From Candidatus Bathyarchaeia archaeon (GTDB lineage: Archaea; Thermoproteota; Bathyarchaeia; Bathyarchaeales; Bathycorpusculaceae), in assembly GCA_038883715.1 (NCBI GenBank), contig JAVZLS010000002.1:32001-96000 (forward strand): 64,000 nt of DNA, written 5' to 3'. Positions 29,660 through 61,740 of this stretch are shown one piece after another. The number at the start of each line of letters is the position of its first letter. Positions within the stretch are counted from its first letter, which is position 1. Under the pieces are notes generated by a model that worked only from the letters and a program-made list of their open reading frames with translations, was not told the origin of the DNA and made no database searches. Made by a program: the position numbers and the translations under genes.

Positions 29660-29734
29660 TGCGGCCGCCGGGATTTGAACCCGGGTCGTCAGCGTGGCAG
29701 GCTGATGTCCTAGTCCAGGCTAGACTACGGCCGC
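29660..29734 (-). tRNA. tRNA-Gly (GCC), no intron, CCA not encoded
   Basis: GCGGCCG acceptor stem, D-loop AGCCTGGACTAGG, anticodon arm TCAGC-CTGCCAC-GCTGA, T-arm CCGGGTTCAAATCCCGG. Confidence 0.97.
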
Positions 29735-58384: not shown

Positions 58385-60199
58385 TCATCCTCGTTTCACG
58401 ATCATTGCGGCTATCACAGATGCAACCGCTACGATGGCAACCGACAATATCAGCCACCAGTAGCTTAATATGCCCGTAAAGTCAAAGCCGCCACCACCGG
58501 CTGCGCCACCGCCGCCGCTTAAATGCGCTGCTAACTGGTGGTAGCTGTGGTGGTATTGCACGTAGATTTGAGCGTATCCGCCAGCCTGACTTATCTGAAA
58601 GTCTATGGGCTGATCGTCTAATGTCACTTTTACGGCTGAAAGCGAACTAATCATTTCAACTGGTATGGTGATGTTGGCTATTCCCGTTGTTCCGTCTGGA
58701 CCGCCAACGTTTACGCTTAAAGTCATGCTTGTAGAGTTGAAGACCACGCCAAGCACAGAAGAGTTTGTTGAAACGTACATTCTCTTGTTTCGCCACTCTA
58801 GCTGCATGCGAATCCAACCTTCCGGCAAAACGGAGATGAAAGCGTTCAAACCAGTCGCTGCAGCCTCATGACCATCATCTATGCCGTCACCATCCGTATC
58901 CCTTCTTATGGGGTCTGTCCGGAAAACTTTGATTTCAACACCGTCGCTGAGTCCATCCCCATCAGTATCTGGATTTAATAGATTTAACGGGTAAGTTCCA
59001 ACACCAGCCCGCTTTATGTTAAACTCATGCTCTTCCAAGTTGGTCAACCCGTCATTGTCATAGTCTTTGTAGATGTCTGTTGGATCCAGTGGGTTAAAGT
59101 ATCCACAGAAAATTTCTTCGCGGTCAGATAGGCCGTCTCCGTCGCTGTCCGGGTTGGAGGATATTGGAAGGCTTAAGTCTATAAGATATGGAACGTCTCT
59201 TATTGTTTTAATGAAGGCGGCTATGGAATCGTTGAGGGGCGACCATGTCCAACATTTGGCGCCATAAAAAATCGTGTGTTTGTTGCTTCCATCAACATTT
59301 ATAGCTGTGATGTTACTACTATCCCACCAAATATTATATGGATGGTAATCATATCTTCCTCCATAATTAACTTCCGTGTATGTTAGCATTGTTCCATTCG
59401 GCGCCCAATTTAAATGCATTGCAATGTTGTTTTCTGAGATATCAGCAATCTTGGTTAGGTTGGTTCCATCGGAGTTAATTATCCAAACGCCAGTGTACGT
59501 TGTGAAGGCTATCTTGTCGTTTGATGGAGAAAACCTAACGCTAAACATCTGGTTATCTGTCCCCTCAAGTTCCAGAACCAGTGATCTCTCGCTTGTTTCG
59601 AGGTTGACTTTCCAAATGCGACTGAAATGGGTGTAGGGATATGTAGAATGGTTCTCTGCAAATTCTGTGTAAAGTAATGTTGTGCCATCCCTTGATAAGT
59701 CAAAGAATGTGGGTACGCATGAGGAGCAACTATTAACGTAGGTTATGAAAGTTGGATTGGTACCATCCAAGTTCTTTGAATATATTGCGGAAGAAGGAGC
59801 AAATACATAGCTGGCGTTGATGTAGAATATTTTTGAATCGTCTGGCGAAATAACAAAATTATCAAACACGCCTTGACCGCTATAGCCCCACAGATTACAA
59901 GAGTCACTAATCGGCGACCAAGTGCTTGCGTTAATTACCACAAAACGGTCAGAACCAGCTATTAATAGTATCTCTCCAGAAGGGGACCATGCGATGCTTG
60001 TTGCGATCATGCCTCCAGAATTCCACATGATATGTCCATCTTCTGTTTGCCATACTTGAGGCGCAGGCCAATAAATGATCCTTGGATTGGCATTAACGGT
60101 AGATTCAGCTGCGTTTGAAAGAGGGATTCTGCAAAGTCCAAACATTGTTGAAGCAAGGATAAAGGTTATTGCGGCGATAGACAATGATCTTTTTAACAT
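58385..60199 (-). CDS. Cell-surface protein: TolB-like beta-propeller + Ca-binding DxDGDG repeats + C-terminal anchor
   Basis: Signal peptide; WSP/FSP/WAP repeats; DSDGDGLSD, DYDNDGLTN, DTDGDGLSD, DTDGDGIDD; Gly linker, TM, KRG. Confidence 0.82.
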   Translation of the reverse strand: MLKRSLSIAAITFILASTMFGLCRIPLSNAAESTVNANPRIIYWPAPQVWQTEDGHIMWNSGGMIATSIAWSPSGEILLIAGSDRFVVINASTWSPISDSCNLWGYSGQGVFDNFVISPDDSKIFYINASYVFAPSSAIYSKNLDGTNPTFITYVNSCSSCVPTFFDLSRDGTTLLYTEFAENHSTYPYTHFSRIWKVNLETSERSLVLELEGTDNQMFSVRFSPSNDKIAFTTYTGVWIINSDGTNLTKIADISENNIAMHLNWAPNGTMLTYTEVNYGGRYDYHPYNIWWDSSNITAINVDGSNKHTIFYGAKCWTWSPLNDSIAAFIKTIRDVPYLIDLSLPISSNPDSDGDGLSDREEIFCGYFNPLDPTDIYKDYDNDGLTNLEEHEFNIKRAGVGTYPLNLLNPDTDGDGLSDGVEIKVFRTDPIRRDTDGDGIDDGHEAAATGLNAFISVLPEGWIRMQLEWRNKRMYVSTNSSVLGVVFNSTSMTLSVNVGGPDGTTGIANITIPVEMISSLSAVKVTLDDQPIDFQISQAGGYAQIYVQYHHSYHQLAAHLSGGGGAAGGGGFDFTGILSYWWLILSVAIVAVASVIAAMIVKRG

Positions 60200-60356
60200 G
60201 ATGTTTCCCTCATACTTTTAGTGTTTATTACGAAAGCATACTCTAAAAGACTTACGCACAACAAATTCTAAAAATTCATCAAAATTTCAACTAAACTTCA
60301 TGCAACATTCTGAACATATTGCAAAGATCCGACGTCACACAACAAATTTTTATGTG

Positions 60357-60423
60357 TCAGTTCGCCCGTCGAGTCATATCACAGCTTATGCCAAAGCTCT
60401 ATTGACTCTCCAGCTCATCATCC
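60357..60423 (-). ncRNA. Box C/D sRNA predicted to guide 2'-O-methylation of 16S C1402 (E. coli numbering)
   Basis: GG-AUGAUGA(C)-GCUGGAG-AGUCAAUAGA-GCUU-UGGCAU-AAGC-UGUGAUAUGACU-CGACGGGCG-AA-CUGA(D). Intergenic, with perfect C and D boxes, an internal K-turn hairpin, and a guide complementary to CGCCCGUCG. Confidence 0.85.
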
Positions 60424-60446
60424 AAAATTAAAATGTAAATAATCCA

Positions 60447-60460
60447 ATTTAAGGCTTATT
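60447..60460 (-). promoter_or_regulatory. BRE-TATA candidate for the C/D sRNA
   Basis: AATAAGCCTTAAAT about 25-30 nt upstream of box C. It resembles the AAAG(C/T)(C/T)TTTA motifs upstream of hypE, suhB and slyD in this window. Confidence 0.55.
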
Positions 60461-60849
60461 TAGGTATCCTTTTTCTTTCGCCTTCTTAATAAATCCAAAT
60501 ATTCTTTCATTGATTTTTCAATATCCCATCTAAATCCAAGCTCTCCAAAGGTTGCATTCCACCAGCTTATAAATCTCTTTAAAGAAATCTTCACAAAAAG
60601 CATGAAAGTGGCCGTCGGAATAATTAATACCAATAAAATGTTCAGTGGAAACCTAAAAGTCGCGATAAAATATAAGCTTAGCAAAAACTCCCCTACCAAA
60701 AATATTGGCACTAAAATTCCCCAGAAAATGCCACCAGCCCCCTCAAGGAAGTCTGTTCCCGGAATTTTCAAAATTAACCTATAAAACCATGGCAAGTCTT
60801 TCTCTTCAATACGCCTCAATTCGTCTTCCTTTTCTTTCATGGAAACCAT
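60460..60849 (-). CDS. Hypothetical 2-TM membrane protein
   Basis: Two hydrophobic helices, charged termini; AT-rich. Confidence 0.7.
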   Translation of the reverse strand: MVSMKEKEDELRRIEEKDLPWFYRLILKIPGTDFLEGAGGIFWGILVPIFLVGEFLLSLYFIATFRFPLNILLVLIIPTATFMLFVKISLKRFISWWNATFGELGFRWDIEKSMKEYLDLLRRRKKKDT

Positions 60850-60924: not shown

Positions 60925-61740
60925 CTAGCCTTCCACAACTCCAATCTTAGTTACTGACAGTCCCCTTCTTTCCAATTCATGGATAAAAGGGTTTATCCCC
61001 AGCGAGTCGCTAGCAATATGCCCGGTCACTATCAAGTTGCCTTTACCCTCCGCCTTCAGTTTTTCCAGGTCCGATGGGCTTATGTGAATGTAAATTAGCG
61101 TGTTGACACCGTGCTCAAAGTACGTTTTAGCAATTTCATACCCTCCGTTAGTGGCTGCCGCATGGGAAACAACAACTTTTCCAGCCTTGTTTTCAACTTT
61201 TCCAAGGCAAACACTGACTTTTGTAAGGGAGTTTCTGAATTCCGGAAGCCCCATCAAGGCGGAAACCACATCTCCAACCGTAGAGTCTTCTCCCACTTTT
61301 TTGTTGATCTGCTCAACCATCCGTTTTCTCCCAATCTCGTCTAAAGGCATATGTATATTCATAAAGGGTATCTTCAAAAGCCTTGCAAAATCCACGGCAT
61401 GAGCATAATTTCGAGCATGTGCTTCTACACTCAATTGTTCAAATTTCCTTTTTACAGCCATTTCAGCCTTTTCCAGTGGAACACCAGCGTCCACCATCTG
61501 CTGAACATGCCTCATAAAAACCCTTGGAAAGCCAAGAATAGCTGATCCGCCAGCCGGGTGATGAGCTATGACGACGTCGTAGCCTAGCTGCTTGGCAAGT
61601 AGAAGCTCTACTGGTCCAGCATCTATGCAGAACAAGACTCGCCGGATGTTTTCGCCTTCAATGTAGATGGTGCTGTCCTCTGGGATTTCAGTTAAACCAG
61701 CAAGCTTTAGGGCTAACTCCATAATCTCTTCAGCGTTCAA
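60925..61740 (-). CDS. Nif3-like dinuclear metal-centre protein
   Basis: FCID, AHHP, NIHMPLD, GHIASDSLG. Confidence 0.75.
   Translation of the reverse strand: MNAEEIMELALKLAGLTEIPEDSTIYIEGENIRRVLFCIDAGPVELLLAKQLGYDVVIAHHPAGGSAILGFPRVFMRHVQQMVDAGVPLEKAEMAVKRKFEQLSVEAHARNYAHAVDFARLLKIPFMNIHMPLDEIGRKRMVEQINKKVGEDSTVGDVVSALMGLPEFRNSLTKVSVCLGKVENKAGKVVVSHAAATNGGYEIAKTYFEHGVNTLIYIHISPSDLEKLKAEGKGNLIVTGHIASDSLGINPFIHELERRGLSVTKIGVVEG

Follow-up and report, generated by a model that had tools for sequence, protein, structure and literature searches.

Archaeal box C/D small RNAs (sRNAs) are described as molecules of ~50 nucleotides (nt) with a K-loop and with spacers of 12 nt (PMC6009581, PMC7229835). 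Since a Sulfolobus ribonucleoprotein (RNP) was active with spacers of 21-23 nt (PMC7229835), the length of 12 nt is typical rather than required. A ribosomal decoding-center base that carries a modification in each domain of life is Cm1376 of P. abyssi, which a cryo-electron microscopy study equates with m4Cm1402 of E. coli, Cm1639 of yeast and Cm1703 of human (PMC7005279), and for which the yeast guide is snR70 (PMC2794176). C1402 abuts the codon in the P site, and its ribose is methylated in all three domains; a search confined to open-access full text found no paper that describes a guide for it from Bathyarchaeia. Here we analyze 64,000 nt of DNA from a Candidatus Bathyarchaeia archaeon (assembly GCA_038883715.1, contig JAVZLS010000002.1, positions 32,001 to 96,000 of the forward strand), hereafter called the window and numbered from its first letter. 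On its minus strand, at 60355 to 60425, it carries a genuine, previously unannotated box C/D sRNA, most likely for the universal Cm1402 site of 16S ribosomal RNA (rRNA), which belongs to a family that extends through Bathyarchaeia and has canonical cousins elsewhere in the phylum. Measured against the description of ~50 nt, a K-loop and 12-nt spacers, the form in the window is a variant. With slightly better than even confidence, we read it as an independently transcribed gene of a hot-spring archaeon that guides Cm1402, in which a helix between the two spacers prolongs a kink-turn (K-turn) and a 5' arm plays an accessory part.

The RNA comprises ~67-71 nt, as matches of the covariance-model and Rfam-style type span 60355-60425 and 60355-60423. 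Followed from 60425 down to 60355, it has GG at its 5' end, then box C (AUGAUGA, 60415 to 60421), and toward its 3' end box D (CUGA, 60357 to 60360), then CA. Box C is invariant in 27 of 27 aligned relatives, and box D is invariant in the aligned relatives as well; UG before box C and CA after box D could add two terminal pairs, as in a K-turn-type C/D terminus. Between these outer boxes, the box pattern parses into a D' spacer of 13 nt (GCUGGAGAGUCAA, 60402 to 60414), box D' (UAGA, 60398 to 60401), box C' (GUGAUAU, 60376 to 60382, its xxUGA invariant in relatives) and a D spacer of 15 nt (60361 to 60375). The GA of box D' makes tandem sheared pairs (60399-60398 opposite 60380-60379), accompanied by a 3-nt bulge UGU (60381 to 60383), which consists of box C' bases plus the U at 60383, and by an apical hairpin that represents a canonical K-turn stem (GCUU, loop UGGCAU, AAGC; 60384 to 60397). 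In addition, both the fold and pair counts join the two spacers to each other: AGUCA (60407-60403) pairs with UGACU (60376-60372), or, if six base pairs (bp) are counted, GAGUCA (60403 to 60408) with UGACUC (60371 to 60376). The terminal boxes and the D'/C' pair with its tandem G-A are thus both as expected of an archaeal C/D sRNA, while the spacers, at 13 and 15 nt, depart from the usual ~12 nt. The 71-nt RNA folds at -20.3 kcal/mol (z = -2.51), a value equalled by 2 of 200 shuffles, and in this fold GAGUCA/UGACUC is paired and the hairpin closed. A sequence-only reading of the locus had proposed perfect C and D boxes around an inner region folding on itself, with an AGUCA/UGACU stem, tandem GA pairs, a UGU bulge and a GCUU/AAGC stem as a K-turn arm; all of these elements are present, on the minus strand.

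The target of the RNA could be read from the organism's own 16S rRNA gene, located at G000:C1:52909-54403, which reads ACACCGCCCGTCGCTCCACCCGAG in the relevant stretch. The D guide CGACGGGCG (60363 to 60371), which occupies positions 3-11 from box D, forms nine Watson-Crick pairs with own 16S nt 1364-1372. We take nt 1364-1377 to correspond to C1400-A1413 in E. coli numbering, so that the guide faces C1400-G1408, and nt 1366 presumably corresponds to C1402. The G at 60365, fifth from box D, faces nt 1366, which confirms the earlier placement of C1402 at the N+5 position and gives the D guide both the length (~9 or more bp) and the paired N+5 base that are usual for C/D guides. Given the sequence of the host 16S gene, the D guide together with the 5' arm UGGAG complements 14 contiguous bases (own nt 1364-1377); the CUCCA on which this earlier claim depended does exist in the host. 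As had been cautioned, the two A that adjoin box D remain unpaired, being opposed by C and A in the target. The guide is strongly conserved: throughout the class-wide and phylum-wide pattern sets described below, GAYGGGC is kept together with its distance to CUGA, so C1402 is always the N+5 base, and in nearly every matched sequence of both sets a C that faces G1408 precedes GAYGGG. Based on the conserved guide and the known modified base, C1402 is most likely methylated with the help of this RNA.

A possible mechanism can be outlined as follows. The sRNA would bind L7Ae at two K-turns and recruit Nop5 and fibrillarin; the D guide would pair with 16S C1400-G1408, and fibrillarin would 2'-O-methylate C1402 at the ribosomal P site. 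The non-canonical stem of the K-turn would be prolonged by the helix of 5-6 bp, whose strands are the 3' end of the D' spacer (GAGUCA) and a 4-5 nt extension of the D spacer (UGACUC), and this arrangement would leave 10-11 nt of free D guide and a short 5' tail. With the D' spacer bound in the helix, the D' side would be mostly structural and the RNA in effect a single guide. In this genome and in about one fifth of its closest relatives, the tail UGGAG continues the complementarity to 16S 1409-1413 and would thereby create a three-way junction on the target, an accessory extra base-pairing that may strengthen binding by the short guide.

Several types of evidence bear on the question of whether the element is a gene at all. 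A strict C/D'/C'/D pattern yields three matches in the genome and none in the reversed genome, and among the three only this sRNA carries an rRNA complement of at least 9 bp. A looser genome-wide scan delivered 38 C..D pairs compared to four in the reversed genome; most of these look coding, and both inner boxes combined with a guide of at least 9 bp occur in this sRNA only. DNA similarity (E < 1e-3) revealed relatives in 34 of 61 genomes, and a covariance model in 38 of 151. The pattern of box C plus D guide matches 146 of 401 Bathyarchaeia genomes, with 80 of 103 within family f1, and 68 of 401 genomes across the phylum, Bathyarchaeia included. Other classes of the phylum possess compact canonical versions of 45-49 nt with the same D guide; for the D' spacer of these compact relatives, no clear target was found in the rRNAs scanned. 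A pattern scan of sequence records gave at least 119 matching stretches, and the 80 records among the matches listed are mostly labelled Bathyarchaeota, Bathyarchaeia or similar, the exceptions among those listed being two Heimdallarchaeota, one Limnocylindrales bacterium and two entries labelled 'uncultured archaeon'. The window sequence also occurs in hot-spring metagenomes. There, the summed contig depth over 60333-60414 rises to 8-10 times the level of the flanks in each of the four runs, DNA runs included (the two runs labelled metatranscriptomic consist of contigs, probably of DNA, and yielded neither ends nor strand nor level of a transcript), and similarity to co-occurring relatives begins or ends at 60354/5 and 60424-8, with the loose ends of metagenome contigs. 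The rise in depth and the loose ends together delimit a block common to the co-occurring relatives that is exactly the RNA; many co-occurring relatives thus share the sRNA sequence while their flanks differ.

The gene appears to have its own promoter at 60446 to 60460 on the minus strand. It reads AATAAG, then CCTTAAATT (60460-60446), and consists of an A-rich stretch resembling a transcription factor B recognition element (BRE; 60460-60455) and the TATA-like CTTAAA (60453-60448), the latter at -30 to -25 relative to the first G of GGAUGAUGA. An open reading frame (ORF) lying upstream ends in a stop codon at 60462-60460, directly followed by the promoter stretch. Upstream of the relatives, TATA-like hexamers, with a motif of the CTTAAGT type, cluster at -31 to -27 in 122 distinct sequences and thus at a fixed distance from GGAUGAUGA, where AT content peaks at 0.84-0.89 and an A-rich block is found at -36 to -33. 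A BRE/TATA-like element at the proper distance had been claimed from the single sequence; it is confirmed and conserved in these 122 sequences. Fibrillarin (PF01269, 327.8 bits) and Nop5 (PF01798, 263.6 bits) are encoded by adjacent genes on contig C31 of the host genome. Since hundreds of species conserve the sequence together with its structure, promoter and guide, we give practically no credence to the view that the boxes are a chance arrangement of motifs without function.

The gene does not belong to a family of Rfam at gathering thresholds: the best match of the window sRNA was sR2 with 16.7 bits (42 are needed), followed by sR3 with 12.7 bits against a threshold of 41. None of 11 relatives compared with Rfam reached a threshold either, with generic C/D matches at sub-threshold scores only, and relatives in other classes score 17-24 bits against thresholds of 36-50. 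The designation as an unannotated box C/D sRNA was therefore borne out. Two further observations concern the loci of relatives. Genomes G002 and G043 contain two copies of the sRNA each, on different contigs, which may be real duplicates or may reflect mixed bins (G002 shows 6% contamination). At the loci of many relatives, e.g., L067, L069, L076 and L082, a second promoter-like motif of the GGAAAACTTATCA type lies 10-30 nt past box D and presumably serves the next gene; the window differs in sequence from such relatives in this region.

To describe the inner structure, 100 relatives (94 distinct sequences) were aligned by fitting them to the structural model. In this alignment 87.1% of cells pair, compared to 16-53% in slid controls, and none of 500 shuffles reaches any of five measures; as the alignment was fitted to the model, the pair count leans towards it. 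The closing pairs GC/GC of the apical stem are kept in 90-92 of the 94 distinct sequences. The inner apical pairs covary, with 24 and 8 cells changed on both sides, and the length of the hairpin varies. The pairs next to the G-A pairs covary as well (UA, UG, CG, GC), and the D' variants CCGA, CAGA, CUGA and UUGA found in relatives change together with position 6 of box C'. Instead of the usual K-loop, the C'/D' motif forms a true K-turn, which is capped by a hairpin that varies among relatives. As a separate observation, the apical D'-C' loop, which varies freely in family f1, is conserved as UCUCAGCC(G) in families f35, f27, f30, f32 and f37 (for example at L053, L186-L188, L191, L192 and L195). 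UCAGCC is also the core of the D' guide in families f14 and f17. The UCUCAGCC(G) loop could form an extra pairing with 16S GGCUGA (own nt 871-876), although other matches score equally.

The helix between the spacers reaches at least 5 bp in 110 of 136 distinct sequences. It is kept with a compensated sequence, GAGCUA/UAGCUC, in G175 and G369, and with further variants elsewhere: CAAGAGUU/GACUCUUG in G059, AGUGUCU/GGACAUU in G181, GAGAGU/ACUCUC and GAGAGA/UCUCUC in family f6 and GAUCC/GGAUU in family f23. Covariation of the AGUCA/UGACU stem and of the UGGAG strand had been named as a check; the helix is kept with different sequences in several lineages, and the arm varies freely. Families f14, f17, f27 and f39 and genus g134 of family f35 lack the helix and possess, in its place, D' guides of 9-11 bp to 16S rRNA; among these, UUCAGCCUU(G) is complementary to own nt 868-877 and UCCUUUAAGUU to nt 877-887. 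Consequently, the sRNA family has two forms, a canonical double guide and one in which the D' side is tied up in the helix, and the window sRNA is of the helix form.

Some findings do not fit easily with our interpretation and have to be weighed against it. Within family f1 the core pairs of the helix barely vary (among 94 sequences GC 93, AU 93, GC 92, UA 80 plus nine UG, and CG 85), so that the covariation of the helix comes from few, more distant lineages. The last helix pair is unpaired in 14 sequences. The A at 60409 and the A at 60403, which flank the helix core, are conserved without being needed by the helix; something else constrains the heptamer AGAGUCA. A helix that ties up the spacers is also at odds with the canonical archaeal RNP and may have to open on assembly, and spacers of 13 and 15 nt are not the 12 nt of that RNP. 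Positions 1 and 2 beside box D are unpaired with the target. Shuffle-controlled scans of 16S and 23S rRNA for targets of the D' guide, moreover, have little power: the D guide itself is equalled by 52 of 300 shuffles.

The unexplained constraint on the heptamer leads to a serious rival that remains, even though we consider it improbable on balance. The RNA could be a double guide whose D' spacer targets helix 69 (H69) of 23S rRNA through AGAGUCA:UGACUCU, with C1920 at N+5 in this organism, while UGACUC would be a masking anti-guide or incidental. The sequence GGAGAGUCA makes eight Watson-Crick pairs and one G-U pair with UGACUCUCU in the 23S rRNA of the same-genus genome G004, a stretch that we take to be the 3' half of helix 69 with C1920 at N+5. 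Searches of 61 and of 5 genomes located this 23S stretch in 15 and 2 of them, respectively, with the identical sequence in all 17. When the 8-mer is shuffled, an equally good rRNA match results in 9 of 300 cases, and one relative of family f6 (L046) has 10 contiguous pairs. The rival would moreover account for the whole of AGAGUCA, with the two A that are dispensable for the internal helix: the heptamer is invariant in 26 of 27 relatives that were found without conditioning on it, the remaining one having GGGAGUCA. The helix requires only GAGUC, and the partner U of its last pair varies in ~18 of 84 sequences; overall the D' strand varies less than its partner strand (both by hand tally). In addition, the clear D' guides of 9-11 bp to 16S rRNA in other families demonstrate that D' guides are in use in this sRNA family, and H68, H69 and H71 are described as methylation hotspots in thermophilic archaea (PMC4644070).

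However, the linker from AGAGUCA to the GA of box D' comprises 3, 2, 1 or 0 nt among relatives and hence lacks the fixed distance of a guide. N+5 would thereby shift between C1920, U1921 and beyond, and no single base would be methylated. G175 and G369, with their GAGCUA/UAGCUC helix, have lost the match to H69 and kept the helix. To pair with H69 the helix must open, so that the net gain is limited to roughly -1 to -4 kcal/mol, and a match of 7-8 nt within 4.6 kilobases (kb) of rRNA is weak evidence. A search of the class for independent H69 guides gave 12 extra matches compared to 8 in the reversed control; among six contexts inspected, five look coding and one has degenerate boxes, and these candidates were rejected as support. 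The organism's own assembly lacks a 23S gene, as neither an archaeal large-subunit rRNA model nor a short motif located one in it, and all statements on helix 69 accordingly rest on relatives. Should the match be genuine, the two partners of bridge B2a would be served by the same RNA. In bacteria, TlyA methylates 16S C1409 and 23S C1920.

Side observations touch on the 23S rRNA as well. The rRNA genes appear to be unlinked, since no 23S follows within 1.5 kb after the host's own 16S; in the same-genus genome G004, the 23S gene (377263-380343) and the 16S segment of helix 44 (h44; 398132) are separated by ~18 kb of a single contig. A further candidate C/D sRNA lies beyond the window, at G000:C2:113515 on the plus strand. 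It consists of AUGAUGA, a 15-nt spacer, CUGA, a GC-rich hairpin and a terminal CUGA, and its spacer makes 11 contiguous pairs with the 23S rRNA of G004 (nt 2225).

Another reading assigns the extension of the D spacer, (U)UGACUC, to the loop region of 16S helix 31 (h31), GAGUCAAC (own nt 933-940), with the D' strand as a mask. Two elements of the P site, h31 and C1400-1407, would in that case be connected by a single spacer. The complement amounts to 6 bp here, and relatives that carry UUGACUC or GUUGACUC (L043) extend it to 7-8 bp. In family f27, the D' guides (xCUCCAAUxx) are complementary to an overlapping 16S stretch, AAUUGGAG, and h31 and C1400-1402 have been grouped together as the vicinity of the P site (PMC7005279). 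However, the first U of UGACUC is the base that varies in ~18 of 84 relatives (hand tally), which leaves 5 bp, and a 6-mer is expected by chance in 1.5 kb. On account of the latter we give this reading low weight and regard it as very unlikely.

This leaves the 5' arm, UGGAG (60408 to 60412), which is the complement of own 16S nt 1373-1377 (CUCCA). From it the sequence-only reading had concluded that the RNA is built to read one 14-nt target, C1400-A1413, by two antisense strands that flank the K-turn hairpin in a three-way junction; in its full form, the model also makes efficient C1402 methylation depend on the arm and lets the arm hold on to the 5' strand of h44 while folding proceeds. Several observations favor the model. 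The genome at hand provides 14 contiguous complementary bases, and the minimum-energy cofold with the 16S fragment is indeed a three-way junction with the arm paired, at -40.0 kcal/mol compared to -20.3 kcal/mol for the RNA alone (37 C); at 75 C the cofold is exactly the junction predicted before, with a 6-bp stem. UGGAG is found in families f1, f2 and f3, which suggests that the arm may be ancestral to them. The AG of the arm that adjoins the helix hardly ever changes, and in each relative these two bases would find partners at 1410 and 1409. Moreover, an arm of at least 4 bp occurs in 8 of 12 genomes whose 16S has C1409 compared to 2 of 29 with U (by genus, 4 of 5 versus 2 of 18), although this link is confounded by shared descent, as the genomes compared are kin and do not constitute an independent test. 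Yeast snR70 offers a precedent at the same nucleotide (PMC3116282).

The comparison with relatives, however, tells against the arm as the design of the RNA. An arm of at least four pairs is kept in 9 of 80 species of the strict pattern and in 17 of ~84 AGAGUCA-type sequences counted by hand. In the former set the arm pentamer is UGGAG in eight species and CGGAG in one, besides ACUAG (14), CAGAG (11), UUUAG (9), UAGAG (7), CCGAG (6) and further variants; in the latter set of 84 it is UGGAG in 15 and CGGAG and GGGAG in one each. CUGAG is another variant among relatives, and arms other than those with at least four pairs keep 2-3 pairs. The 16S partner, in contrast, reads CUCCA or UUCCA in every relative for which it could be located. 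In g1 and g13, members of the same genus have UGGAG in some cases and UAGAG or CAGAG in others, despite a constant 16S, and lineages that bear the helix with other sequences have no complementary arm. The geometry within the RNP is likewise uncertain by our inference, since 2 nt separate the arm from box C, whereas the continuation of the target emerges at the distal end of the D-guide duplex. Judged by what is expected of extra base-pairing, the complement does lie directly beside the guide duplex; of conservation among orthologues, only that of the two helix-adjacent bases is seen. As it is probably ancestral to families f1-f3 and has decayed repeatedly, we do not take the arm to be the feature under selection. 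The claim of a 14-nt target read across a junction hence stands as complementarity in this genome and is not supported as a principle of construction, and we consider the full model unlikely, if far from negligible. In our preferred reading, the arm pairing likely forms in this organism but is accessory and under weak selection, and the split guide is a lineage-specific extension, not a principle of the family. Even more tentatively, one might speculate that the ancestor of families f1-f3 and the present genome read C1400-A1413 through a three-way junction like that of an H/ACA pocket within a C/D RNP, which would couple methylation to holding the 5' strand of h44 open in 30S assembly and make the RNA an archaeal counterpart of snR70. 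If so, the principle of a short guide plus accessory pairing at C1402 would predate eukaryotes. A reading of the RNA as H/ACA, prompted by antisense strands that flank a K-turn stem and by an ACA after box D, was rejected: the junction has no unpaired target base, a lower stem is missing, and conservation of the ACA does not extend across the class.

The neighborhood of the gene adds little to its function. Three ORFs on the same minus strand lie nearby, and no link to ribosome biogenesis was seen for any of them: 58385-60199 (604 amino acids) shows bacterial TSP3 repeats and weak beta-propeller matches, 60460-60849 (129 amino acids) has no Pfam family, and 60925-61740 (271 amino acids) has a weak NIF3/DUF34 match. 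A transfer RNA gene at 29660-29734 on the minus strand (64.7 bits) is the only match of the window to Rfam at gathering thresholds.

The significance of the family goes beyond this single locus. It would supply the C1402 guide for a large uncultured class, a guide of which there is none in Rfam. The hairpin-closed K-turn, the long spacers and the helix between them bear on the freedom that the archaeal C/D RNP tolerates. Furthermore, the relatives form a natural series, from canonical double guides through helix-bearing single guides to forms with two to five extra junction pairs, through which the effects of guide masking and of extra base-pairing would lend themselves to direct measurement.

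If compared to archaeal C/D sRNAs, e.g., the Pyrococcus sR families of Rfam or those of Pyrobaculum and Pyrococcus (PMC6009581), the window sRNA shares the C, D', C' and D boxes and the tandem G-A pairs. Further points of likeness are a guide beside box D with an N+5 target, an archaeal promoter of its own, and fibrillarin and Nop5 in the genome. It differs in its length of ~70 instead of ~50 nt, in a hairpin-closed K-turn instead of a K-loop, and in spacers of 13 and 15 instead of 12 nt that are paired to each other over 5-6 bp. In bacteria, the same nucleotide is 2'-O-methylated by RsmI, which together with RsmH produces m4Cm1402 (PMC11542601, PMC5053481); in contrast to the window sRNA, RsmI and RsmH are protein-only, use no guide RNA and constitute unrelated machinery.

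A closer archaeal parallel is found in sR17 and sR15 of Nanoarchaeum, double guides that bridge both strands of 16S helix 28 (h28; PMC4644070). Relatives in families f14, f17, f39 and f35 similarly join the C1402 guide to a D' guide of 9-11 bp for own 16S nt 868-887, a stretch situated immediately before the 5' strand of h28; C1400 in turn comes after the 3' strand of this helix. Unlike these, the window sRNA has lost or never had the D' guide to nt 868-887, and its D' spacer is tied up in the internal helix. The pocket of H/ACA RNAs bears another resemblance, as its stem carries an L7Ae-binding K-turn. There, too, two antisense strands flank a stem and form a three-way junction with the target (PMC2094053). 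The window sRNA, in contrast, shows neither an unpaired junction base, nor a lower stem, nor an ACA box kept class-wide, and because its boxes are C/D, the enzyme expected is fibrillarin and not Cbf5.

The closest described mechanism for the arm is the extra base-pairing of yeast and human small nucleolar RNAs (van Nues et al. 2011). In human, the counterpart of snR70 is U43/SNORD43. In Arabidopsis, it is AtU43 (PMC11542601). Yeast snR70 serves the same universal base, Cm1639 (E. coli C1402; PMC2794176), with a guide that is among the shortest, and it adds a conserved extra pairing beside the target with a stem in between (PMC3116282). In a test construct, designed extra pairing raised methylation five-fold (PMC3116282). 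Two differences nevertheless separate the systems: the extra element of snR70 resides in the loop of the D'-C' stem and serves the D' guide, while the window sRNA has it at the beginning of the D' spacer, in the service of the D guide; and the former is conserved among yeasts, while the latter is kept in about one fifth of relatives. Since extra pairing beside a short guide has been described for snR70 (PMC3116282, PMC2794176), the idea of a split guide at C1402 is not new in kind.

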